In this document: one piece after another, positions 21,848 through 51,759 of the stretch | How positions within the stretch are numbered: position 1 is the first letter of the stretch | How the letters are laid out: every line of letters starts with the position of its first letter | Virus record (IMG/VR): IMGVR_UViG_3300025108_000001 | Coordinates: 1 to 64,000 of that record | Length of the DNA: 64,000 bases | Origin: a virus | Reading direction: 5' to 3' (one strand) | The notes under the pieces: generated by a model | The model's database searches: none | What the model saw: the letters and a program-made list of their open reading frames with translations, nothing else | Told to the model about the DNA's origin: nothing | Translations under genes and position numbers: made by a program

Positions 21848-24800
21848 TCACTCCACCATTAACTTGTATTTACTAGTTGCGGATAAAATTCTAGTATTAT
21901 CATTCATACTACTACTCTTAGAACCTACTTTACTAGGTCTTGAAGAACCAAAATTCGTTCCCCTACCAAAACCTGAAATTGCAATATCATCATCCCCCGA
22001 CATTGCGCTTAATGGAGATAAAAGTTTTAATTCTTCACTAGTCTTAGAATTATAAGATATGAATGGAATGTATTTTATCTTACCTAAACCTGCTATCATC
22101 CCTCTAGGTAAAGTTGCTATTAATTTGTTATCTTTATTTTTTATTTCTAATTTAGGGATTCCCCTTTTATTTGGTAGTATTTCTTCTATAAATAATTGAG
22201 TTAAACTTCTTTCTATATTAACCATATTATAACTATTTTTACCTTGTCTATTTTCTCTCAATAAACTTCCTAAATTTAATATCTTTTTGAATGATTCAAA
22301 TTTTATTTTATCAATCTTTTTTGTTCCCGATTCTGTTAATTCAGAGTCTTCTAATTTTAATAAAAAGTTCTCGAAAAGACCCACTAAATTATCTCTATCA
22401 GTTTTTTTTAACCAAAAGAATAAACTTTTAATTTCATCAACACTTTCTATTTCTTCAACAGATTTAACAAACATTTTTGTTATTTTACTTAATTGATATT
22501 TTCTTAACACTTCACCTTTATTCTTATCTTTATTTTCATATGCTTCTGTTATTTTTTTAATCATATCTTTTAATATGTCTAAATCAACATTATTATATTG
22601 AAAATTTCCTCTTAAAATATTTTTGTAATACCCTTGATAGCCGTCATCGAACCACGAAGGAAATATATCTGTTTCCATAAACTCTTCTTTTTTTATAGAT
22701 TTTTCCAATGTTTGTTGTCTAGTATTACGTCCAGTTACATATTCATCGGGCTTTGGTGTGTATGAATATGAGTTTTGAGGAAGAAGCAACCTTTTAATTT
22801 CTTCACTTGTAAACCACTTATATGCTTCTGTTTCTTTAAATTCATCAAAAATTTCTTTTGCATTTTCTGTATTTTCTTCTGCAACTTCCTGTTCAATCCC
22901 GATATTCATTTCATCTGAATCAACGGGAACACCCAAACTTGACAGGCCTGAAATATATTTTGAATACAATAAAAATAAATTATCAATATCTTCTTGGTTT
23001 TTACTCTTTCTCAATTCCTCAATATTCTGAGACGTAATAATTTTATCATTCTTTGTCCTAATTGTTATATCATTCATTAAATTATTCATATTTTTAAAAT
23101 CTCTATACGACACGTTTATCATTGTTCGTATTCTTTTTTCGGGTGTAGTGTTAGATTGACCTCTTCCCGATGTATTAAAAAGAGAAGTTGTTATATTAAA
23201 AGCGGCATCATCCCAATCAGAATCACTACTTATCTCTTTTATTTCTCTAGGAGATTTAGTAAAATAATAACTTTCCTTTTGTAATATTCTATGCAATTCA
23301 TTTTGGAAAGGTATAATATCGTCCGTTATCATATCATATATTGTATTTATATCAGGATGTATTATTTCTTCTTTATTATATAACAATCTCTTCATTTTTT
23401 CATTGGGTTTTTTACCAGTGGTAGCAGTAGCAAGTTGTATTCCATAATCTTTATCATAATTTAAATATTCTTCAAATTTTTCTTTACTTTTTAACGCCTC
23501 TTTACCAGACTTCGAAGTAAACGCTAACGTAAATCTATATTTTCCCATCATTATTTCTTGATTTTGTGGTCTTAATATACTCTCAATAGCAGTTTTAATA
23601 TCATACATTGAAGCACTATTTATTTTTTTATTTGATGAGATTATTTCTGTGATTAATTTAGCAACAGTTTTATTATCATTAATTTTATTATATTCAGAAT
23701 TTAATTTTGCGTAAGCCTGAGACTTAGTAATACCAATATAATTACTACCAGTTAACGAGGATAAAACGTTATACTTTTCAACTGCGGGTGTTTCTATTGA
23801 ATTAGTATTATTCTTTTGGTCTAAATCACTAAATATTCTTTCTAATACTAAAATCCCATTACTAAAAGAAGGTTCAAAAAAGTCTTTAAGTCCACTAAAA
23901 TCTTCTTTCTTTAAAAAAGTTATAGTTTTTAAAACACTTTTTAGAAGTTGTTTTTCTATATCTTCTTCATCTTCTTGGTCAGTATCTTTAGTTTTTTCTG
24001 CTAACACATCGTCTATATTATCTAAGATTTCTCTAAGAACAGAAACCTCAAAACTACCTCCCTCGCGTTTTCCTCTTTTTTGTCTTAGTATTCTTTTCTC
24101 AAAATTGTCTGTTCCATCAGACAAATCTTTAAGCAACATTATAATAAACTTTGAATTAGAAACACCAAAAATTTCTTTAATTCTATTGTTCGTTTCTTCT
24201 TCTTCTTCGGTTGTATCTAATAGCGTTGTTAGATAAGTAATTTTTTCATTATTATTACTTATTTTTTTAAGCCATTCTTGATATATGTCTGATTTTTCTT
24301 TTGTTGTATCCTCTTGCACAGTTTGTATATTATATTTAGATTTATCACCTAATATATTTGCGTCTAGTCCGGCTTTTTTAAATGCTAATTTAAAATATTT
24401 TTTAGTGTCTATAACAATTTCAATAGAACTTTCAGTTGTTGTTTTACCCTTACCCGTTGTTTGTATATTAGTAGTAATAACACCATCTGCTAATAGCAAC
24501 TCAGGAATATAGATAGGTTTCCCCTTATCAAAGGAATCTATAATACCATAATTACCCACTTCACTATCAACTTCTTCTAAAGTTGCTAATTGTTCTTCAA
24601 ACCTTTCTTCGATTTCTTCGTTTAGTGTTCTATCAAAATCATCTTTTTCAGATTCAGAAGAAAGAGATTCTCGTTTAACGTCTTTATCGTCTAGTATTTT
24701 TTCTTTTATTTTATCTTTCATATCTTTTAATTCTTCACTAGTAAGTTTAGGTTTATCATACGTTTCTTCTAATAATTGTTTTACTCTTTTTTCATTTGTA

Positions 24801-25309
24801 AATTGACTAGTTAAAAAATTTAATTCTTTAGCCCTATTTAATAACGCTACTGTAAAAATATATTTTGAATCGTCATAAGTTAATTTTTTCTTCTTCTGTT
24901 CTTTAGACTCGTTATATATTGTAAAATAACCTTTAGCGGCTAATTTTTCTATTAAAGTATGTAATTTTGTTTTTCCTATTTTTTTCATAATTAGTTTTAT
25001 TAAATTTTCTAACTCTTTTGGCTTACGTTTTCTTTCTTCTACATCGGGATAATCCTTAGAGAAATCATCTTCATCTGCATTTCTCAACCCTCTAACAGAA
25101 AGATTGGCTTCTTTCAACAAACTGTTAGGTGAAGGTTCTGACTTATAAAAAATATCGGCGGCAAATTTATAAAAAAGTTGTTCTATTCTTTTATTAGAAG
25201 AAGAGAAATCTTTTGTATTGAATAGTTCTATTTGTTCTTCGGTCAAAAGATATCTTACAAATTGGGTTCTATCCAATTCATTACTAATATATACTCCTTT
25301 TGTCGCCAT
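21848..25309 (-). CDS. Large charged hypothetical protein (1153 aa), possible virion/internal protein
   Basis: Long K/E/D-rich ORF inside the structural operon; no recognisable motif. Confidence 0.6.
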   Translation of the reverse strand: MATKGVYISNELDRTQFVRYLLTEEQIELFNTKDFSSSNKRIEQLFYKFAADIFYKSEPSPNSLLKEANLSVRGLRNADEDDFSKDYPDVEERKRKPKELENLIKLIMKKIGKTKLHTLIEKLAAKGYFTIYNESKEQKKKKLTYDDSKYIFTVALLNRAKELNFLTSQFTNEKRVKQLLEETYDKPKLTSEELKDMKDKIKEKILDDKDVKRESLSSESEKDDFDRTLNEEIEERFEEQLATLEEVDSEVGNYGIIDSFDKGKPIYIPELLLADGVITTNIQTTGKGKTTTESSIEIVIDTKKYFKLAFKKAGLDANILGDKSKYNIQTVQEDTTKEKSDIYQEWLKKISNNNEKITYLTTLLDTTEEEEETNNRIKEIFGVSNSKFIIMLLKDLSDGTDNFEKRILRQKRGKREGGSFEVSVLREILDNIDDVLAEKTKDTDQEDEEDIEKQLLKSVLKTITFLKKEDFSGLKDFFEPSFSNGILVLERIFSDLDQKNNTNSIETPAVEKYNVLSSLTGSNYIGITKSQAYAKLNSEYNKINDNKTVAKLITEIISSNKKINSASMYDIKTAIESILRPQNQEIMMGKYRFTLAFTSKSGKEALKSKEKFEEYLNYDKDYGIQLATATTGKKPNEKMKRLLYNKEEIIHPDINTIYDMITDDIIPFQNELHRILQKESYYFTKSPREIKEISSDSDWDDAAFNITTSLFNTSGRGQSNTTPEKRIRTMINVSYRDFKNMNNLMNDITIRTKNDKIITSQNIEELRKSKNQEDIDNLFLLYSKYISGLSSLGVPVDSDEMNIGIEQEVAEENTENAKEIFDEFKETEAYKWFTSEEIKRLLLPQNSYSYTPKPDEYVTGRNTRQQTLEKSIKKEEFMETDIFPSWFDDGYQGYYKNILRGNFQYNNVDLDILKDMIKKITEAYENKDKNKGEVLRKYQLSKITKMFVKSVEEIESVDEIKSLFFWLKKTDRDNLVGLFENFLLKLEDSELTESGTKKIDKIKFESFKKILNLGSLLRENRQGKNSYNMVNIERSLTQLFIEEILPNKRGIPKLEIKNKDNKLIATLPRGMIAGLGKIKYIPFISYNSKTSEELKLLSPLSAMSGDDDIAISGFGRGTNFGSSRPSKVGSKSSSMNDNTRILSATSKYKLMVE

Positions 25310-25322
25310 TCATCAAACCACC

Positions 25323-26042
25323 TTAAGCAAGCCATTTAGCCCATGCAACTGCTTTACCCAATCCTTGCGCTAGACCTAGACCACTTTGAGGTGGAGTATA
25401 TGTTGGTTGACCTGTTTGCGGGTCAATCCAATAAGGATTATTCATGTTGTCATAACCACTAGGAGGAATAGGATAACCACTACCGTTGTTCATAGCCATT
25501 TGTTGTTGGTTTAGAGTATTGTTAAAATTCGTACTCATGTTACCACCTTGTATTTGATTAGGGTTTAATCCTTGAGGATTCATACCACCCATATTACCCA
25601 TAGCACCCATAGTATTAGTTTGAGGTTGCGGTTGCTGTGGAGAACTGAATCCCTGCGCCTCAAGATATTGTTGTTTAGCCATTCTTCTTTGCATAACAAC
25701 TTCACTATTAACAGCAGAAGCCAATAGTTGCTGTATATCTAAATCAATATTTTCCTGAGTTATGTTTGTGAACTCAGTTAATGCATCAGGAGTAATAGAT
25801 AAATTTCCACTAGAACTCTGACTAAATTCTAATTTAACTAACATTTGACTGACTGCTCTTTGAACAGTATCTTCAATTAATTTTTCTAGTGTACGTAAGA
25901 ATGATTCCCCATGATATTGAAAGAAATCTTCTACATGATTTTCCTGTAAAGTTAGAAGGTTGTTCATTGCTTTGAATTGGGTTTGCTGCTGTGCGCCGAT
26001 TTGTGTTGCTAATGCTCCATTACTAGTTCCGAATAATCCCAT
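25323..26042 (-). CDS. Gln/Pro/Gly-rich protein with C-terminal amphipathic helix
   Basis: Helical N-half, low-complexity Q/P/G/M/N tract, YWIDPQTGQPTYTPP, then LAQGLGKAVAWAKWLA. Confidence 0.7.
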   Translation of the reverse strand: MGLFGTSNGALATQIGAQQQTQFKAMNNLLTLQENHVEDFFQYHGESFLRTLEKLIEDTVQRAVSQMLVKLEFSQSSSGNLSITPDALTEFTNITQENIDLDIQQLLASAVNSEVVMQRRMAKQQYLEAQGFSSPQQPQPQTNTMGAMGNMGGMNPQGLNPNQIQGGNMSTNFNNTLNQQQMAMNNGSGYPIPPSGYDNMNNPYWIDPQTGQPTYTPPQSGLGLAQGLGKAVAWAKWLA

Positions 26043-26045
26043 TAA

Positions 26046-26723
26046 TCACTCCCCCACTGTTTCAACATTGACAACGTTAACGCCTTCGGTTAATAGAGTT
26101 TTGACTCTTTCATTAATATTATTAGTTTCTATAATTAATCTAAATAATTCTTCTTCTTTATTTTCAATAGCATTATTGGGAGGTTTAATAGTCCAACCCA
26201 TAGCAGAAAGAGATTGCATATCGGCTTGTTTTAATGTTGTCATTGGACTTGATGTTACTAAATTAACAGGGTTCAAACTTTTAGCAGATGGAATATATGC
26301 ACTAAAAGAAAGACCGTGTTCTTCTGCTAATATTTGTTGCTCTAACATTTCGTATTGTTTATGTATTGATGCGTGTTTATTGCAGTAAGTTCCTCTCATT
26401 GGATAACCTTTTCTAACTTTGTGTAAAGGTAAAGGGGGTCTCATTGTATCGCCTGATTCCCAAACTTTCTGAGAACCACATACTACACATCTATCTTTAA
26501 TATTGTATTTAAATTTGTATGGGAACTTTAAGAAAGTCTTTTTTTCAGGCATGAGAACTTTAATTATTTCTTTTAATTTCTTTTTCGGTTTTATGTTTTT
26601 ATATTCATACATGATTACTGTACCTGCTGCTCTAGCAGAACTAAATCTATCTAAATATGGGTTAGCCCCCACATGGGCTGATTGTGCGCCGATTAAATTT
26701 GGTGGGCTATAATTCATTGTCAT
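26046..26723 (-). CDS. Zn-finger plus coiled-coil protein
   Basis: CVVC...YCNKH motif; likely start at ATG 26723 after a GGGGT SD-like site. Confidence 0.65.
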   Translation of the reverse strand: MTMNYSPPNLIGAQSAHVGANPYLDRFSSARAAGTVIMYEYKNIKPKKKLKEIIKVLMPEKKTFLKFPYKFKYNIKDRCVVCGSQKVWESGDTMRPPLPLHKVRKGYPMRGTYCNKHASIHKQYEMLEQQILAEEHGLSFSAYIPSAKSLNPVNLVTSSPMTTLKQADMQSLSAMGWTIKPPNNAIENKEEELFRLIIETNNINERVKTLLTEGVNVVNVETVGE

Positions 26724-26737
26724 GTGATAATACCCCA

Positions 26738-27406
26738 CTAGTAGTCCTTTATCATTGTTAGGATTCCTCTATAAACCATCTCTGAATCAGATTTAGCACT
26801 TACTATATATTTATAACAAGGTATTCCCTTATCATTTAACTTCTGCATACCATTTCTAAAGGATTCAAATATTGGATGTTTTTCTATTGTCTCATAATCA
26901 TATTTGTCTTTCCACAAATCATGTTTATTAGCCCAAAGACCAACTGCTACGGGGTAATCATGTAACTTTTTCTTTTTCTTTTTTCCACCAACATTCCAAT
27001 AAGGACTACAAATAGTATCTACTAAAAAAGTCCAACATAATTGTTGTTCTATATCATAGTGTTTATCCATATGCCTATCATCTAACATAAAAATAATATA
27101 TTTAACTTTTCGAGTTCTCATATCTTCTACCCACTCTTGCCAAAATACAGTTTCACCACCAACATCAGCAGTTTTAACAGTATGAGCATCACCGTCTAAT
27201 TTTACAAATTTTCTAGATGCTCGATGAAGCCCGACAGTTCTATCTGTAATAGATGGAACTTCACCTCTAGTTCTTAGTTGATGATGTAATGTAGTTTTAC
27301 CTGCTTTACTAGCACCATATACCCCAAAGGGTATAGAATGTAATCTCTGATAGACTTTGTTTATACCCTCAACTAACAGAATAGCGAAGCCCGCCATTAC
27401 CGACAT
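26738..27406 (-). CDS. Small Ras-superfamily GTPase, Arf/Sar-like
   Basis: G1 GASKAGKTT, G2 RTVG, G3 DVGGE, G4 ANKHD, G5 SAK; N-terminal hydrophobic/amphipathic helix. Confidence 0.88.
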   Translation of the reverse strand: MSVMAGFAILLVEGINKVYQRLHSIPFGVYGASKAGKTTLHHQLRTRGEVPSITDRTVGLHRASRKFVKLDGDAHTVKTADVGGETVFWQEWVEDMRTRKVKYIIFMLDDRHMDKHYDIEQQLCWTFLVDTICSPYWNVGGKKKKKKLHDYPVAVGLWANKHDLWKDKYDYETIEKHPIFESFRNGMQKLNDKGIPCYKYIVSAKSDSEMVYRGILTMIKDY

Positions 27407-27412
27407 TGTTTA

Positions 27413-27637
27413 TCACACCAAATGATGAAATAAATTAACTATTCCGTTCCAAGTTGAAGAATATAAATTATAGCCAAATAAAGATATAGCATGACCTACA
27501 AAAAAACTAGTAACACAAGCAATCCCACTCCAAAGAAAAAACCTCGCTCTTAAGAACCATATATCAGCAGAATGCGCTCTTTGTAAATCATAGGCTAATG
27601 TGGATTCATCGAATCCCATTAGGATTTCTCCTACCAT
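27413..27637 (-). CDS. Small membrane protein
   Basis: One hydrophobic span (FFLWSGIACVTSFFVGHAISLFGY) plus an amphipathic C-terminus. Confidence 0.7.
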   Translation of the reverse strand: MVGEILMGFDESTLAYDLQRAHSADIWFLRARFFLWSGIACVTSFFVGHAISLFGYNLYSSTWNGIVNLFHHLV

Positions 27638-27645
27638 ATAATCAC

Positions 27646-28071
27646 CTACTCATTAAAGCCTGTTAAAAATGTTGGGCTAATAGTATTCGCATCAAATTGT
27701 TGTTGTGGTTGTTGCATTACTGGAAGATTAGAGTCCCCATAAAATGGCTGTCCGAATGATTGATTAAAACTCCTAAGTGATTCTCTAACTCTCTTACGAT
27801 TTTCTTCATCTCTTGCTTTCCTATTCCAATAAGCATCTATTTTTCTTTGTAATAAAAAATCTTCTATAATATCATTTAACATTAAATCAAACAATGCTTT
27901 CAATAACATTATCCCTCCTACTGTGCATATTCCAAACAATACTGCATGGGATAATCCGGTGTATGGAAAGTCAATTCCATATATAGTGTAAAAATAAATG
28001 TTAGTGCCACTAATAGCACCAACGAAAAGTATAGTCATTACTAATCTTGTATCTGTATCAATACTAGGCAT
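27646..28071 (-). CDS. Two-TM membrane protein with charged, Q-rich tail
   Basis: Two hydrophobic spans in the first 65 aa, followed by a hydrophilic tail. Confidence 0.7.
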   Translation of the reverse strand: MPSIDTDTRLVMTILFVGAISGTNIYFYTIYGIDFPYTGLSHAVLFGICTVGGIMLLKALFDLMLNDIIEDFLLQRKIDAYWNRKARDEENRKRVRESLRSFNQSFGQPFYGDSNLPVMQQPQQQFDANTISPTFLTGFNE

Positions 28072-28075
28072 AATA

Positions 28076-28351
28076 TCAACTCCAAGAACAGGAGTATGAA
28101 CCGCCTGAACCAGTTAGAATTGCTGTTATTCCTGTTCCCATTGACCTATTGTGCATATCAAATTCGATTGTAGAATTAGCAGTTAGAATTAATCTAGCAA
28201 CCTCATCTGCCGAACCGACACTAGTAGTATTATGGTCGTATATTTTTAATGTAGCAGTTCCAGTAGAACAAAAATGAATACTTGTTAATTTGCATCTACC
28301 ATCATTTACTACTGCACTTGCAGTTTTTACAGGACTACCTGCGGAAACCAT
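28076..28351 (-). CDS. Small beta-rich virion protein
   Basis: 91 aa; TLKIYD...LIL..NSTIEF..MGTGITA pattern resembles small structural proteins of tailed viruses. Confidence 0.5.
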   Translation of the reverse strand: MVSAGSPVKTASAVVNDGRCKLTSIHFCSTGTATLKIYDHNTTSVGSADEVARLILTANSTIEFDMHNRSMGTGITAILTGSGGSYSCSWS

Positions 28352-28797
28352 TACTTCACTTCCTTCTTAGTTGTGGTTTTTTTTGCAGGTGTTTTCTTTT
28401 TTGCAGGTGTTTTCTTAGCAGTAGGTTTCTTTTCTACTATGTTTTCTTCTTTCGGTAATACAGTTTCAGTAACGGTCTCTACTGCTTTTTCTACAACTGC
28501 TTCGACCTTTTTCTTTACAGGAACTTTTGCCTTCTTAGGATACAATATATCAAGAATATCTCCTTCAACACCTAAGTGCCTACGAATTGCCTTTACTCTA
28601 TTTTCAGGTAAGTTTGCAATATCCTTTTTATCATCTTCTGTAAAGTCAATTTCTATTGCTTCATCACCTAAATACAATGCTGCAATTCTTGCAGGTACTT
28701 CACAAGGAGCATTTGCATTAATGGAATACAGTGTTTCCCCTGCCCCTCTTATTACTAGTTCGCCATTTCTATGTGTTTTCAATTTTACTAAAGCCAT
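28351..28797 (-). CDS. Hypothetical protein with Lys-rich histone-H1-like tail
   Basis: Directly downstream of MCP; C-terminal KKPTAKKTPAKKKTPAKK; probable start MALVK at 28797. Confidence 0.65.
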   Translation of the reverse strand: MALVKLKTHRNGELVIRGAGETLYSINANAPCEVPARIAALYLGDEAIEIDFTEDDKKDIANLPENRVKAIRRHLGVEGDILDILYPKKAKVPVKKKVEAVVEKAVETVTETVLPKEENIVEKKPTAKKTPAKKKTPAKKTTTKKEVK

Positions 28798-28820
28798 AAT
28801 TATCAACCTTTTTTTTATAG

Positions 28821-28891: not shown

Positions 28892-30295
28892 TTAAGCACT
28901 CTTTAGGTTGGTAATTTTACCTTGTCCCTTGAAGAAAGAACAGCAAGTTTCTCCCATAGTGCGGTACATTCCTTGATTTCCAAGTTTACCAACACCGAAT
29001 GGGTTTCCACTAGTAATACCATCTTCGAAGTATTGTGTAGGTTTCATTACAGATAGCCATAGATGGTCTGTATCTAGAACTAATATATCACTAATTCTGT
29101 TAGATGTGGACTTACCTGTTGACGGCATATCTTTAGCAGGGATAATTGGTATGTCATAGTATGTTGCAACTCTGAAACCAACTTCTTGACCCTTAACACC
29201 ACGAACACCATTATGGGAAGGAACAATTTCTTTCCTATCCATAAATCTCTCTTGTGATTGTAGTAAATCAGAGATTTTCTGTATGGTATCATATCCTGTA
29301 ATGATAACTTTAGGGTTTCCGCCGTTAGTACGGATTCTTCTAATCATATCATTAAGAATACTTAGTGTTAGAACTCTACATTCACCGGATGTATAACCTG
29401 CACCAAAATCAACTTCTGCATCTAGGAAAGATGGAACACCAGTGTAGGTGTATGCTCCACTTCCGCCTGATGTGTTAACAGTAACAGTTCTAGTTGAACC
29501 AAAGATAGTGGTAGCATCAGCAAGTTGTGCTGCTGTACCGTTATTTGTTTGGTTGTGGTAGAATACGTCATCATCAGCCATAGTTGCAAGTTCAACCGCA
29601 GATGAAACTATCTTCATTAAAGAAGTGTAGTTCTTCTCAATACCTGTTGTACCGTTTTCTGAGTATTTCTCAAGAGGCATAACTAACATTTTGCTCTGAA
29701 CTTCTGCGTGTAGTTTACCCATGTCTTCTCTAACGATAGCACGAATATCACCAACACCATCATCAATTGCAGCCATTTCCATTCCTAGTTCTGAGAACTC
29801 GAATAGATGTGCAATAGTCTTAGGGCTAACATATAGTTTAGTATATTCAGGAGCGATTGCTCTAAATCCGTCTGCACCACCTAATGTTGCGTTTTCTCCG
29901 ACACCACCAATTTGGTCTGCTCTAGGAGTTGCTGCATCTGCTGATGAAATACTAGCGGTAACTGCATTAGTACCTGTACCGAATGCTGCATCACTACCAC
30001 CAATAGGTCGTGATTTCAAAACTCTCCAACCGCTTGATGTGTAAGGTCTCTTAGCAAGCATTGCTAGAGGGTTTACTTCTTGGTTTAATACAGACCAAAC
30101 TTTCTGTCCGTATAGTAGGTTGTACAAATCACCTAGACCTGCTGCACCCGTAAATGCATTAGCACTAGTATCGTGAGGAGTACCGAAACCACCTACAACT
30201 CCACCTGCTTTAAGCAAGGCATTGCCGCTTCCTGTTCCGCCATATCCGTATGTTGCTGCTTCTAAATCTTTCATTGTTTTAATATATCCACTCAT
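28892..30295 (-). CDS. Major capsid protein (HK97 fold)
   Basis: 467 aa, directly after the prohead protease. N-terminal propeptide ends ALLK/A; GGNPKVIITGYDT, VATYYDIPIIP, ILVLDTDHL and QGKITNL segments are typical of HK97-like MCPs. Confidence 0.88.
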   Translation of the reverse strand: MSGYIKTMKDLEAATYGYGGTGSGNALLKAGGVVGGFGTPHDTSANAFTGAAGLGDLYNLLYGQKVWSVLNQEVNPLAMLAKRPYTSSGWRVLKSRPIGGSDAAFGTGTNAVTASISSADAATPRADQIGGVGENATLGGADGFRAIAPEYTKLYVSPKTIAHLFEFSELGMEMAAIDDGVGDIRAIVREDMGKLHAEVQSKMLVMPLEKYSENGTTGIEKNYTSLMKIVSSAVELATMADDDVFYHNQTNNGTAAQLADATTIFGSTRTVTVNTSGGSGAYTYTGVPSFLDAEVDFGAGYTSGECRVLTLSILNDMIRRIRTNGGNPKVIITGYDTIQKISDLLQSQERFMDRKEIVPSHNGVRGVKGQEVGFRVATYYDIPIIPAKDMPSTGKSTSNRISDILVLDTDHLWLSVMKPTQYFEDGITSGNPFGVGKLGNQGMYRTMGETCCSFFKGQGKITNLKSA

Positions 30296-30307
30296 AATTT
30301 CACTTCC

Positions 30308-31519
30308 TTAATTTCCCCTCACAAGAGAATGTACGTCATCCCAAGTCATATTGGCTGCTGCCTCTAAACTTGTAGGTATTCCTTCCGGTAATGCCATTGA
30401 CATTTCCACGCTTTTGCGAATTGTTGCGTCTTTCTCTGATAGAGATTTTCGTAGTAGAGCAAACTCTTCTTTTAGTGCTGCTACATCTGTTCTAGCATCG
30501 TATGATGCGGATTCTGCTGCTGATTTCTTAACAGAAAGTTCTTCTGAAAGTCTTGCTTCAAATTGCTTAGAAAGATTATCGTATGCAATTTTTTCCATCT
30601 GCTCTGCTTTGAATTGTGCATATGCTTTCTCAACATTGTCTGCACTTAGGTTAAGAGTACTAAAGTCCGAATCATCTAACCCATTACTCTTTAGTGTTGC
30701 AGGTGCGCTAGTTGGTTTACCACCACTAACTACAAGTTCCCCTGCTTCGTAGTCTCTTGTTGAATCTTCATCAAGAGATTTTGCTTCTTCCTCTTCTTCT
30801 TCATCATCCTTACGCATAGACATCATAGTTTCAACATCTTCTTCTTCTTCTTCATCATCCCTAGTTGACATACTATATTTGGCATTCTTCGTTACTTCGT
30901 CATATTTTCCTTCCTCTCCGAGTCCGTTAACTTGTTTCATCAAGTCATTCAACTCTTCGAGTGCTTTCTCCAATTTTTCACTCATTGTTTTATCCTCCAT
31001 TTTTAAAATGTCGAATTTTGCTTCGGGATTAATCCCTTTTTCACAGATAGTTACTTCATGTAATTCTAACCTGTCTATCTCATTATACTCACCAAACTCA
31101 TCTGATGTTTTTTGTTTCTTAGAAATCGCCTGACCTCCAATACTAAAAGAACGAAGCGTTCCTTTTCTAATACTCCTTGAAATTTCTTTTGCCTTTTCTA
31201 TGTCATCTCTTAATTTAATAACAACATAGAAACCTACGTCATCTACTCCTGTTTTATGAAGAGTTCCATTAGTATCTCTATACTTTTCTATGACTTCTCC
31301 GACCTGAACATTAGAATGATTAGACATAACATTTCTATATTTCTTTTCAGACATATAGTTTTTTGCCGCATCATCTAAAGCACTTAATGTAATTAAATCA
31401 TTTTGTTTATCTACTATTTCTATCGAAGCGTAGCCACCAATAATCAAATCATCGGATTTAAGAATAGTAAACTCATGTTCTCTATCTGCTTTGAATAAAA
31501 GAGAAGGTTGCATAAGCAT
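30308..31519 (-). CDS. Prohead protease (HK97-type) fused to a scaffold domain
   Basis: IIGGYASIEIVDKQND, MSNH, LRSFSIGG and LHEVTICEKGINPEA protease motifs, followed by an acidic coiled-coil C-terminal half. Confidence 0.9.
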   Translation of the reverse strand: MLMQPSLLFKADREHEFTILKSDDLIIGGYASIEIVDKQNDLITLSALDDAAKNYMSEKKYRNVMSNHSNVQVGEVIEKYRDTNGTLHKTGVDDVGFYVVIKLRDDIEKAKEISRSIRKGTLRSFSIGGQAISKKQKTSDEFGEYNEIDRLELHEVTICEKGINPEAKFDILKMEDKTMSEKLEKALEELNDLMKQVNGLGEEGKYDEVTKNAKYSMSTRDDEEEEEDVETMMSMRKDDEEEEEEAKSLDEDSTRDYEAGELVVSGGKPTSAPATLKSNGLDDSDFSTLNLSADNVEKAYAQFKAEQMEKIAYDNLSKQFEARLSEELSVKKSAAESASYDARTDVAALKEEFALLRKSLSEKDATIRKSVEMSMALPEGIPTSLEAAANMTWDDVHSLVRGN

Positions 31520-39350: not shown

Positions 39351-41009
39351 TTAACCAACTCTCCTTTCTGTTCTTTTGTCATTATTTTGATTCCCTGCAT
39401 CCTTTGGTAATCCTGAAAATCTTTTATCGGGAGCATTAAACATACTAGGCTTGTTTCTTTTTTTAGGTGGTTCTGATTTAACTTTTTCGGGAACACCCGC
39501 TTCGGCCATTGTCGGTTTATTTCCTTCCGCCATCATTTGACCTAACTGACTAGCATCAATATCCGTACCTGCGTAAGGGTCAAGTTCAAACTCATCTTCT
39601 TTACCCTGTTGTTTTTCTTTTTCTTCCATAGGTTTATCATAAGTAAACCTGCCTTCTGAATCCATCTTTACTTCAAATCCTAAGTTCTTTATTGCCCCTG
39701 CAATATTAACTTCCATTTCTCTTAGTCTTAATTTAGCAATTTCATCTTCTTCTTCCGAAGGTGGAAGTTTTAATTCCCAATCTGTAATACCAAATTGATT
39801 AGTAATAAAGGGAAACACATAATTATTCCAAGTCGTTTGAGCCATCTCTACTGCGCGATTAGTAACAAGTATTTGCATACCTTCGTTATTTAATCCACCG
39901 CCCGCAGAAGCGTCATTCATAAACACTTTACTTACACCATAAAAGGCAGAAATTCTATCTCGTAAATCATCTTTTACTGCAACATATTCCATTTCTTTTA
40001 GGCTATCCATGAATCTAACCCATTCAACAGAACCCTTTCCGGTTTCCGATTCAATTCCCATTACCGGAATAAAGTGAGGGTCTTGTTCCATCTTTTCTTT
40101 AACACCTCGCCAAAACGATTTCATTGACTCCATATTTCTTGTCTGAACAGCCAACAATCCCTTCGGCATTCTTGCCTTAGTATATGATGAGTTAACATAA
40201 TTATCCATTGCAATTAATGTAGTAACATTATTCCACAAAGTAAGAATAGGAGACATACCATATAATCTAGAAGGGGAATATTTGCTAAAGTGAACTACTT
40301 CCCCTTTGATGAAATATTGTTCTTCTCCGTTAACACGATTAACATAATGAACAGGATACAATTCTGAATTACAGGTCTCACAAGTTTCACTCGGATGTTC
40401 ATGTATTCTGTCTCTATGGCGCAGACAAACATAACCCCCTTTTCCTCTTTCGCCAAGTTCATTAGAATAAATGTGCATAGTAACAGGGTCGCCTCTAAAC
40501 ACTTCTTTTATTCGATGCATTCTAACCTTAGAATTATTGTCTAAATAATATTCCTTTACTGTAACTAAGTAAGCATCATCCATTATATTCAAATCATCTT
40601 CTAATTCTTTCAATACATCTATGAACATTTGGTCTGCATTATTTACATATCCTTCTAAAAAGTTTTTAGCATACACTAATTGTTTTGAATCCGGTTTAAC
40701 TAAATCAGTAGATTCACAATCTGTGCATTGTAGGACGGGATTAGTATGTTCTTTTCCACAAGAATTACATTTTAATGCAAATTTTTCCTCCCACAAATAC
40801 CCTCTTCTGAAAACCTCTTGTTTAAGTTGGGTAATACAAGTCCTAACAATAGTTGACTGTTGCACTATATGATAAATAATAGGACTAGTTAACATATAGG
40901 AATTATCTCTTTCTTGTATTCCTAAATTGTAAACCGTTCTATCAGCAGGTTTAGGTGTAGTATTTCTAAATAGATTACTAAATGAAAATTTTCTTTTCTC
41001 TTCTACCAT
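39351..41009 (-). CDS. Portal protein with Zn-finger insertions
   Basis: VVHFSKYSPSRLYGMSPI, MPKGLL, EMEY and RISAFYGVS portal motifs; downstream of TerL. Confidence 0.88.
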   Translation of the reverse strand: MVEEKRKFSFSNLFRNTTPKPADRTVYNLGIQERDNSYMLTSPIIYHIVQQSTIVRTCITQLKQEVFRRGYLWEEKFALKCNSCGKEHTNPVLQCTDCESTDLVKPDSKQLVYAKNFLEGYVNNADQMFIDVLKELEDDLNIMDDAYLVTVKEYYLDNNSKVRMHRIKEVFRGDPVTMHIYSNELGERGKGGYVCLRHRDRIHEHPSETCETCNSELYPVHYVNRVNGEEQYFIKGEVVHFSKYSPSRLYGMSPILTLWNNVTTLIAMDNYVNSSYTKARMPKGLLAVQTRNMESMKSFWRGVKEKMEQDPHFIPVMGIESETGKGSVEWVRFMDSLKEMEYVAVKDDLRDRISAFYGVSKVFMNDASAGGGLNNEGMQILVTNRAVEMAQTTWNNYVFPFITNQFGITDWELKLPPSEEEDEIAKLRLREMEVNIAGAIKNLGFEVKMDSEGRFTYDKPMEEKEKQQGKEDEFELDPYAGTDIDASQLGQMMAEGNKPTMAEAGVPEKVKSEPPKKRNKPSMFNAPDKRFSGLPKDAGNQNNDKRTERRVG

Positions 41010-42357: not shown

Positions 42358-43791
42358 CTAGAAGTTCAGTCCTAACATACCGCCTAAAGAGTTATTCGTA
42401 GTTGTGGGAGCATTGAATAATCCCATATCATCTAATAACATAAATACATCTTGTGAATTTTGCGTGGCGGCATTGGCTAATGCCAAACTCATTACTAAGT
42501 CATCGTGTGCGCCTACGCCTTCAAACTTTCCTGAATGAGTAATAGAAAACATTGACAATTCTTCTATCAACATATTGGTTAATTTTTTACTAGAGTTGTC
42601 GCCATAGGGAAAGTTAATTTTTCCATTTTCTATGTTCATTTGTAGGTTAAGAATTATTTCCTGTTTTCTCTTTCTTGTTGTGTTGAAATCAGTTACATTC
42701 AAATCTGAAACATTTCTTAACTCTTGAGTAAATGCCTTAGCAAACGTATTTGTTTCATATAGAATTTCTTCGGGTTCAAATATTTTACCTATCAATCTAA
42801 TTTTATCTATATTTTCTCTAAACTCAACATTCTTGGCTCTATCCACATGAACAATTGTTTTATTCATATTTTCATCAACTTCTAAAACAGTAATTACATT
42901 ATAATCTCCATCGGTAGAGATAGCAGGGTCAACACCAACGTAATATTTGTATCCCTTGTCTTTTCTATGTCCCAATTTTAATACATATTCTTTATTTTTA
43001 CATTTAGTTACAAATTCAGGATTGAAAAGTGCTGTTCCTGTGGAAATTGGAACACAAAGATATTCTCTTGTAAATTTTAGAGAACCGATTTCTGCCTTTC
43101 TTTGCATCAGTGCTTCATAATTCCATCTCTCCGGCCAAAGAGGTTCATTTAAAGAATTAAGACAAGGGTATCTGTTTACAGTATAGGCATCATTCTCTTC
43201 TAACTGTGCAAATATATCTGTATAGGTAAAAGGAGTGCCAATCATTCTCAATTTAGAAGTGTGATGTAGTGTCGGTATCATATCTCCGAAAAACCAATCA
43301 GTAACTTTCTCTATACCAACTATACTGAACTCTTTCAAAGGGTCGTCAATAATAATTTCTTGAGGATGTAGTCCTCTAATCTGAGAACCTACGGAACGCT
43401 CTAAAATTGCATTGCCGTTTGTTAATTGAATATTACCAATAGCCCAACCCCTGCTAGGTCTAAATTGTTTTAATGCGGGTAAGTTGAAATATCTATCTAT
43501 TTCTCTCATATGAACTAAAGTCTGCTTTTGGTTAGAAGAAATGTATAGCATCTGAAAAGGAGGCTCTTGGAATACTAAATTCCATACTACCCAACTGTGC
43601 ATAAATACAGATTTGCCGTGGTCTCTACTACAAATTATAACTGTTCTATCAGTAGTATTCATAGAGTCTAACCATTCTTGCATATATTCAGGATACATCA
43701 TACCTAAAACATTTTGAAAAAAATATGGAAAGGAAGTTTTAGATAATTCCATATCCATTTGGGTTACGAAATCTAATTCATTTAACTCCAA
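42358..43791 (-). CDS. terL: Terminase large subunit
   Basis: Walker A SRDHGKS, Walker B IIIDD, motif III IGTP, nuclease VGVDPA and HDDLVMS. Confidence 0.93.
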   Translation of the reverse strand: MELNELDFVTQMDMELSKTSFPYFFQNVLGMMYPEYMQEWLDSMNTTDRTVIICSRDHGKSVFMHSWVVWNLVFQEPPFQMLYISSNQKQTLVHMREIDRYFNLPALKQFRPSRGWAIGNIQLTNGNAILERSVGSQIRGLHPQEIIIDDPLKEFSIVGIEKVTDWFFGDMIPTLHHTSKLRMIGTPFTYTDIFAQLEENDAYTVNRYPCLNSLNEPLWPERWNYEALMQRKAEIGSLKFTREYLCVPISTGTALFNPEFVTKCKNKEYVLKLGHRKDKGYKYYVGVDPAISTDGDYNVITVLEVDENMNKTIVHVDRAKNVEFRENIDKIRLIGKIFEPEEILYETNTFAKAFTQELRNVSDLNVTDFNTTRKRKQEIILNLQMNIENGKINFPYGDNSSKKLTNMLIEELSMFSITHSGKFEGVGAHDDLVMSLALANAATQNSQDVFMLLDDMGLFNAPTTTNNSLGGMLGLNF

Positions 43792-51497: not shown

Positions 51498-51680
51498 TTA
51501 TAGTAATTTTTTAAGTTCAGTAATTAAAACCTTAACATCTTCTTTAGTATAGGGTTCAGGATTTGCTAATTTTTCTGGACTAGGATAGCCTAAAATATTG
51601 GAATTAAGTACTTCCATAACTTCGTCCGTTATATCATCTCCCCAATCAAAATCTTCTTTTATTATTCCTTTCCAACTCAT
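51498..51680 (-). CDS. MSWKGIIK-tagged small acidic protein
   Basis: Probable start at 51680. Confidence 0.65.
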   Translation of the reverse strand: MSWKGIIKEDFDWGDDITDEVMEVLNSNILGYPSPEKLANPEPYTKEDVKVLITELKKLL

Positions 51681-51681
51681 C

Positions 51682-51759
51682 TTAATACTCTCCACAATAA
51701 CTACACATACAACAAGAATAATTATCCTCATCTATTTCCATATTACAACATTCTAACAT
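51682..51759 (-). CDS. 25-aa six-Cys microprotein (not in ORF track)
   Basis: MLECCNMEIDEDNYSCCMCSYCGEY; fills the gap between two genes exactly. Confidence 0.5.
   Translation of the reverse strand: MLECCNMEIDEDNYSCCMCSYCGEY

Follow-up and report, generated by a model that had tools for sequence, protein, structure and literature searches.

A conserved late-gene cassette of magroviruses built around an Arf-like GTPase

Results

We analysed a 64,000-nucleotide (nt) stretch of viral DNA (positions 1 to 64,000 of IMG/VR record IMGVR_UViG_3300025108_000001; "the window" denotes this whole stretch) and found that five contiguous genes on its minus strand, at 25323-28071, form a conserved late-gene cassette of magroviruses built around an Arf-like small GTPase. 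A first-pass annotation of the window had proposed a GTPase and membrane-protein module at this place, and all five of its open reading frames (ORFs) are present. They are separated by gaps of 3-8 nt, with an overlap of 1 nt between genes C and D:

27646..28071, minus strand: gene A, 141 amino acids (aa), small membrane protein
27413..27637, minus strand: gene B, 74 aa, one transmembrane (TM) segment
26738..27406, minus strand: gene C, 222 aa, Arf-like small GTPase
26046..26738, minus strand: gene D, 230 aa, orphan Cys/His protein
25323..26042, minus strand: gene E, 239 aa, orphan Q/P-rich protein

The cassette is single-copy in the 99-kb genome. Selection on its genes was estimated as the ratio of nonsynonymous to synonymous substitution rates (dN/dS), calculated against 7-13 relatives. 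The medians, which are rough values because dS is saturated, were 0.074 for C, 0.124 for E, 0.149 for D, 0.18 for A and 0.24 for B; the capsid protein had 0.111. These ratios mark all five as real genes, and within the region purifying selection is strongest on the GTPase, exceeding that on the capsid protein.

Conservation of the cassette

Close relatives of the cassette were found in 80 IMG/VR loci, whose GTPases are 76-98% identical to that of the window. Genes A-E stand in the same order in all 80, on every contig that reaches them (gene A in 79 of the 79 loci reaching it, gene B in 80 of 80). Iterated profiles recovered another 84, distant loci from at least two lineages, with GTPases 30-38% identical to that of the window. 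C, D and E occur together in each of these, and the profile of E matches 159 loci, including all 84 distant ones. The upstream pair of genes in the distant loci encodes a protein of 140-220 aa with one or two TM segments and a protein of 60-90 aa, mostly with one. A sixth gene, for a two-TM protein of 70-90 aa, follows E in 70 of 78 distant loci; it lies at about 10300-10650 in L081-L164 and at 10229-10552 in L166 (70-105 aa, two TM segments), and has no homologue anywhere in the 99-kb genome studied here.

A fourth lineage, represented by metagenome contigs, has the order two-TM protein, one-TM protein, an extra protein of about 250 aa, GTPase, D, E and two-TM protein. The product of the extra gene has no TM segment and ends in ...GIVTWD; the gene lies between the one-TM and GTPase genes at L166:7229-7999, L171:6435-7181 and L175:7217-7999. 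The first-pass annotation had made its proposal depend on co-conservation of the genes, and the cassette is indeed found in the 80 close loci, and GTPase, D and E, with TM genes in matching positions, in three further lineages. The distant loci have the cassette upstream of the terminase gene and not next to the capsid gene. Since its genome position differs in some lineages while the gene order is kept, the cassette moves as a unit.

In locus L002 the GTPase is 98% identical to that of the window and D only 55%. Recombination was considered as the cause and ruled out, as gene D contains two frameshifts there and the nucleotide identity is 89.7% throughout. The frameshifted gene (L002:7080-7800) looks like a sequencing or assembly error rather than decay.

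The GTPase

All Arf/Sar-type motifs quoted in the first-pass annotation, together with the N-terminal hydrophobic helix, are present in gene C, whose features are:

27341-27403: N-terminal hydrophobic helix, aa 2-22
27290-27316: G1, GASKAGKTT, aa 31-39
27230-27241: G2, RTVG, aa 56-59
27152-27166: G3, DVGGE, aa 81-85
27131-27142: WQEW, containing the switch-II Trp
26966-26989: polybasic insert, GGKKKKKK
26918-26929: G4, NKHD, aa 160-163
26867-26878: HPIF motif
26792-26800: G5, SAK, aa 203-205

G1-G5 are conserved across 239 unique relatives, which places the protein in the Ras superfamily. The residue after DxGG is variable: Glu was found in 125 of these relatives, Gln in 97, Asp in 6 and His in 2. 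Gln is the majority residue in the distant lineages (42/58), and a relative 78% identical to the window GTPase also carries it. The Glu of DVGGE, stressed in the first-pass annotation in contrast to DVGGQ, thus recurs often within one clade and is not a hallmark of the family.

An AlphaFold2 model (21 family members) reached a mean predicted local distance difference test (pLDDT) score of 89.6 and a predicted template modelling score of 0.85. It consists of a helix at aa 2-22 followed by a standard G domain, with the lysine run on a beta-hairpin insert. The helix was predicted with a pLDDT of 64-76. Hydrophobic residues prevail in its first half, and the lineages share its amphipathic part, with hydrophobic moments of 0.55-0.78 in eight representatives. 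The insert, located before beta5, has a mean net charge of +3.8.

When this model was used as a query, Foldseek returned at least 500 small-GTPase matches with E values of about 1e-9. A wide search with VIA-align gave 18.6 for Arf6, 17.8 for SRbeta, 17.5 for Sar1 and at most 16.5 for Rabs. In a second pass over 1000 Foldseek chains, the top 50 were all Arf, Arl, ArfR or G-alpha plus LokiRagO; these structural neighbours are those of a predicted model, not of a solved structure. A search of PDB sequences with the family profile pointed the same way: the best match was GerdArfR1 (8oun, 1.4e-10), followed by Arl8, Arl3 and Arf6 (1e-8 to 1e-7), with KRas and Rab33 scoring just a little worse than these three. 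Trp92 is nearly invariant in the family and aligns with the switch-II Trp of Arf and ArfR. The family profile and the structural model thus bear out a real GTPase whose nearest group is Arf/Sar/SRbeta, and, judged from the model, gene C resembles a member of an extended Arf group, nearest to Arf, Arl, Sar, SRbeta and ArfR.

The curated domain models draw a stricter line. All Pfam scores of the window GTPase were sub-threshold: SRPRB (PF09439) 22.1 bits against a cut-off of 25, Roc 18.7, Arf (PF00025) 17.4 against a cut-off of 22.3, and MMR_HSR1 16.5. This test places gene C outside Pfam Arf, and the relevance to the origin of Arf proteins that the first-pass annotation had suggested is not borne out. 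The Arf threshold was reached by four distant singletons (P0156, 27.2 bits; P0168, 26.8; P0178, 32.1; P0169, 57.2), whose link to the viral family is weak (E 4.5e-9 to 7.5e-4); a search with P0169 returned only P0169 itself. IMG/VR yielded none of the singletons P0156, P0169, P0134 and P0147, of which P0134 was located in metagenome contigs. None of ten full-length relatives scanned against Pfam scored best to Rab or Ras, and NCBIfam assigned the GTPase only to the generic small_GTP domain. One source annotation labels relatives "GTPase SAR1 family protein"; automatic pipelines have therefore already seen the domain.

The family is small. Exhaustive HMMER searching of 1.84 billion representative proteins yielded only 60 with E<=0.001, and a big protein collection contained 366 GTPase clusters at 90% identity. 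No homologue was present in the INPHARED phage records. A scan of GTDB genomes, one per species, gave a single match (L165, NZMJ01000101.1, 28.9 kb, GTPase 76% identical) in a metagenome-assembled genome named "Maricaulis sp.", which is almost certainly a magrovirus-like contig misbinned with an alphaproteobacterium. By these searches, the GTPase family appears to be virus-specific, very divergent and isolated, without a close cellular relative.

Membrane proteins A and B

Hydropathy analysis of gene A showed one clear TM segment at aa 42-61 and a weaker hydrophobic segment at aa 11-31, so that one of the two TM segments assigned to it in the first-pass annotation is clear and the other weaker. 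A strongly charged tail follows at aa 76-100 (RKIDAYWNRKARDEENRKRVRESLR). Gene B has the single TM segment that had been ascribed to it, at aa 33-54. Within the late operon of the window, TM segments were predicted only in A and B, apart from hydrophobic stretches of the tape-measure protein and an ORF at 51498-51731, whose hydrophobic start is probably an artefact of upstream extension. Neither A nor B matched Pfam or PHROGs. Comparison of the upstream TM proteins of the different lineages with hhalign gave P=0.0012 for A and 0.014 for B, versus 0.05-0.68 for mismatched pairs. As this sequence similarity is marginal, the conservation of the TM proteins across lineages is positional and topological.

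Partner proteins D and E

Gene D, a Zn-finger/coiled-coil protein in the first-pass annotation, has Cys/His motifs, and the Q/P-rich composition and terminal amphipathic stretch of E, pointed out in the same annotation, are present:

26577-26591: gene D, basic helix, KPKKK
26478-26489: gene D, CVVC
26373-26384: gene D, CNKH, followed by long helices
26028-26042: gene E, MGLFG, conserved N-terminus
25326-25382: gene E, C-terminal Gly/Ala/Trp-rich amphipathic stretch

Translation of gene D probably begins at Met6, a residue that does not vary in the alignment, and D is probably a zinc-binding Cys/His protein. E combines a low-complexity region rich in Q, G, M, P and N with a central conserved helical region. 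D and E had no match in Pfam or PHROGs. Scanning 26 D members against Pfam at E<=1 gave none, and 0 of the best 120 D relatives carries a precomputed Pfam domain. Protein atlas scores for D and E were about 0.80, which is chance level; the list for D leaned to small zinc-finger families and, being at chance level, was not used as evidence. D and E are thus orphan families without a recognisable fold or domain, in the case of E by sequence scans only.

We also considered D as an ArfGAP. The ArfGAP zinc finger has the spacing C-x2-C-x16-C-x2-C. The Cys spacing of D differs and no invariant Arg is present, and this assignment was rejected.

Virus, host and late operon

The complete record has 99,250 bp with direct terminal repeats and a GC content of about 32%. 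The closest named relatives of its HK97-type capsid protein are those of the archaeal tailed viruses HCTV-1 and HVTV-1, and relatives of the genes studied came from marine metagenomes, Tara samples included, on contigs of up to about 100 kb. A haloarchaeal host, as first supposed, is not borne out; because of the GC content, the marine relatives and the capsid match to archaeal tailed viruses, we assign the host to Marine Group II/Poseidoniales. The window fits a magrovirus, a tailed virus of these archaea, and not a halovirus. Marine Group II archaea are abundant in the ocean, and magroviruses rank among the most abundant viruses of its surface.

The minus strand carries one long morphogenesis operon that includes the prohead protease, portal, terminase, tape-measure and tail genes. 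In operon order:

42358-43791, minus strand: large terminase
39351-41009, minus strand: portal
between portal and prohead protease, minus strand: ATP-dependent ligase
30308-31519, minus strand: prohead protease fused to scaffold
28892-30295, minus strand: HK97-type capsid protein
between capsid gene and cassette: two small ORFs (151 aa at 28351-28806, minus strand; 91 aa)
21848-25309, minus strand: 1153-aa hypervariable protein without family match, directly downstream of the cassette
further downstream of the cassette, minus strand: tail protein and tape-measure protein

The cassette had been placed between the capsid gene and a head-tail adaptor gene. It does lie in the late operon on the way from capsid to tail genes, but two small ORFs intervene after the capsid gene. 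The assignment of the downstream neighbour as an adaptor is not borne out: the 1153-aa protein is hypervariable and has no family match in Pfam or PHROGs. For this acidic protein, identity is only 26-56% in loci with a capsid identity of 100% and a GTPase identity of 98%, and most loci have no detectable counterpart. It may be a host-range or counter-defence protein.

The 151-aa protein encoded after the capsid gene has a C-terminal tail rich in Lys, Thr, Pro and Ala (KKPTAKKTPAKKKTPAKKTTTKK) that resembles histone H1 or DNA-binding tails. The protein is fast-evolving, its identity among loci ranging from 28 to 98%. Between 34400 and 55700 on the minus strand of the window, a W-x-x-[IVLM]-[IVLMF]-K motif (MSWxxILK type) stands at the N-terminus, or close to it, in about 19 ORFs; one ORF has the motif at its C-terminus. 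All five cassette proteins lack this tag.

Contigs from four marine metatranscriptome studies cover the capsid gene (28892-30295) or close variants of it, consistent with active magrovirus infections in those samples. The cassette was represented by a few short contigs of low depth from one run only; since contigs cannot rank genes and DNA carry-over is possible, no inference on its transcription is drawn.

Discussion

The constrained Arf-like G domain, its hydrophobic helix and basic insert, the linkage to D, E and the TM genes and the location in a late operon lead us to infer a GTP-switched membrane device. In the mechanism that we propose, the GTPase would dock on the host membrane as the switch. 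D, whose gene would be translationally coupled to that of the GTPase, and E could act as its regulator, its effector or both. A and B would form the membrane-resident, holin-like part, with the GTPase setting the timing. The switch would then control a late membrane event in which the membrane is opened or remodelled to let virions out.

By analogy, virion release at the host membrane is the most likely job of the cassette, and we put it forward tentatively. Three analogies suggest it. The first is the holin-like topology of A with its charged tail. The second is the gap that such a system would fill: the egress machinery of archaeal tailed viruses was described as completely uncharacterised in a 2024 review (PMC10791045). 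The third is vesicle budding in Haloferax, which ArvA, a GTPase with an N-terminal amphipathic helix, drives together with two operon partners, one of them a Zn-ribbon protein (PMC10927574).

Several points weigh against this reading. The GTPase stays below the Pfam gathering thresholds of Arf, SRPRB, Roc and MMR_HSR1, and its N-terminal segment is more hydrophobic than classically amphipathic, with a model confidence of only 64-76. D lacks an invariant arginine as a candidate finger of a GTPase-activating protein (GAP). No match to a holin, GAP, guanine nucleotide exchange factor, coat or ESCRT family was obtained with A, B, D or E. Membrane binding, GTP hydrolysis, protein contacts and effects of the cassette on the cell are all predicted. 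Finally, the neighbourhood of morphogenesis genes suits a role in assembly equally well.

Such a role is nevertheless unlikely in our view. The GTPase and its partners would then be assembly factors or minor virion or ejection proteins, active in head or tail assembly at the membrane or in a DNA-delivery channel. In favour of this, TM segments are common in the ejection proteins of tailed phages, and all lineages have the cassette within the morphogenesis operon: here it stands between capsid and tail genes, elsewhere it precedes the terminase gene. Its position relative to the capsid gene is variable, however, and its five proteins lack the MSWxxILK-type tag found on about 19 of the virus's other proteins. 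We also know of no tailed virus that uses a Ras-like GTPase for assembly.

It is likewise improbable that the cassette takes over the host without releasing virions, as an ArvA-like vesiculation, division or polarity switch that forms vesicles or internal membranes, blocks division or excludes superinfection. Takeover genes are usually early, whereas the cassette belongs to a late operon, and Pfam scans of D and E detected likeness to neither ArvB (DUF2073) nor ArvC (DUF2072). What speaks for it is that ArvA-type GTPases bud vesicles in Euryarchaeota, with the same ambiguous Pfam pattern and a Zn-ribbon operon partner; the weak family matches of the viral GTPase are equally spread.

A soluble regulator (in translation, packaging or nucleotide sensing) that merely shares an operon with unrelated membrane genes is very improbable: MMR_HSR1, a family of ribosome-binding GTPases, is the most frequent Pfam match (13/21 members) and the upstream TM proteins of different lineages are weakly similar in sequence, but the TM-TM-GTPase-D-E order is kept in four lineages with GTPases about 30% identical, even after relocation, the genes are tightly packed or overlapping, and the structural neighbours are of Arf type, not of Era or Obg type.

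Virion release thus remains the role that we favour. A bolder version of it, which we consider doubtful, is that magroviruses encode a self-contained Arf-type machine in which a GTPase that docks on the membrane is combined with a new regulator of zinc type, a Q-rich effector and small TM proteins, and which both times and executes release. If this were true, archaeal tailed viruses would have their first known egress system, and an Arf-like membrane switch would exist beyond eukaryotes and Asgard archaea, as a functional parallel of the euryarchaeal ArvABC system and perhaps its descendant. For the open question of release, the cassette is a concrete and clonable candidate, being single-copy in this genome, present in every related locus retrieved and under strong purifying selection. 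The family also bears on the distribution of Arf-like switches, as a structurally Arf-like family in viruses of an archaeal phylum other than Asgard. The GTPase cassette is undescribed in the searchable magrovirus papers, a body of literature that excludes supplementary tables and subscription journals.

Comparison with known systems

GTPases of giant viruses, such as the mimivirus Rab (PDB 5XC5), are clear Rab orthologues captured from eukaryotic hosts, whereas the family described here has no close cellular relative. SRbeta (PF09439) gave the highest Pfam score among the sub-threshold matches, 22.1 bits under a cut-off of 25. Unlike SRbeta, the viral GTPase has an N-terminal stretch whose length and hydrophobicity fall short of a standard TM helix, and no partner resembling SRalpha or SRX was recognised, because D and E have no fold match.

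Compared with the Arf family, to which eukaryotic Arf1, Arf6, Arl1, Arl3, Arl8 and Sar1 belong, the viral GTPase has a longer switch I and interswitch, a polybasic hairpin insert before beta5 and an insert with HPIF after G4, and it lacks Gly2 for myristoylation. The Arf family has a catalytic Gln where the window GTPase has Glu (Gln in 97/239 relatives). ArfR proteins are reported to be nearly exclusive to Asgard archaea, and GerdArfR1 is represented by PDB 8OUN/8OUM (bioRxiv 10.1101/2024.02.28.582541). In contrast to ArfR, the viral family is encoded by viruses of Thermoplasmatota-type hosts.

With holin cassettes of phages, the viral cassette shares small late proteins with one or two TM segments, a charged C-terminal tail (A), fast evolution with conserved topology and a location in or beside structural genes. 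Unlike phage lysis cassettes, it has no holin-family match in PHROGs or Pfam and no endolysin partner, although endolysins were not systematically searched for in the window. None would be expected, since to our knowledge the host lacks murein. We know of no phage lysis cassette that contains a Ras-like GTPase.

The closest functional analogue of the cassette appears to be the archaeal vesiculation operon ArvABC, also named OapABC, which occurs in Haloferax volcanii and other Euryarchaeota and in DPANN archaea, with ArvA being HVO_3014, ArvB a DUF2073 and ArvC a DUF2072 protein (PMC10927574). ArvA-type GTPases are annotated as MMR_HSR1, and Arf is their closest family in comparisons of hidden Markov models (PMC10927574). 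The viral cassette differs in lying in the late operon of a virus, in adding two or three small TM proteins and in having a D and E without detectable similarity to DUF2073 or DUF2072 in Pfam scans. The likeness to ArvA itself lies in the N-terminal hydrophobic or amphipathic helix and in an ambiguous affinity to MMR_HSR1 and Arf in Pfam, the latter being a shared pattern of weak hits only. In both systems two partner genes come directly after that of the GTPase, one of them encoding a Cys-rich, Zn-type protein, and for both a membrane-deforming role is proposed.

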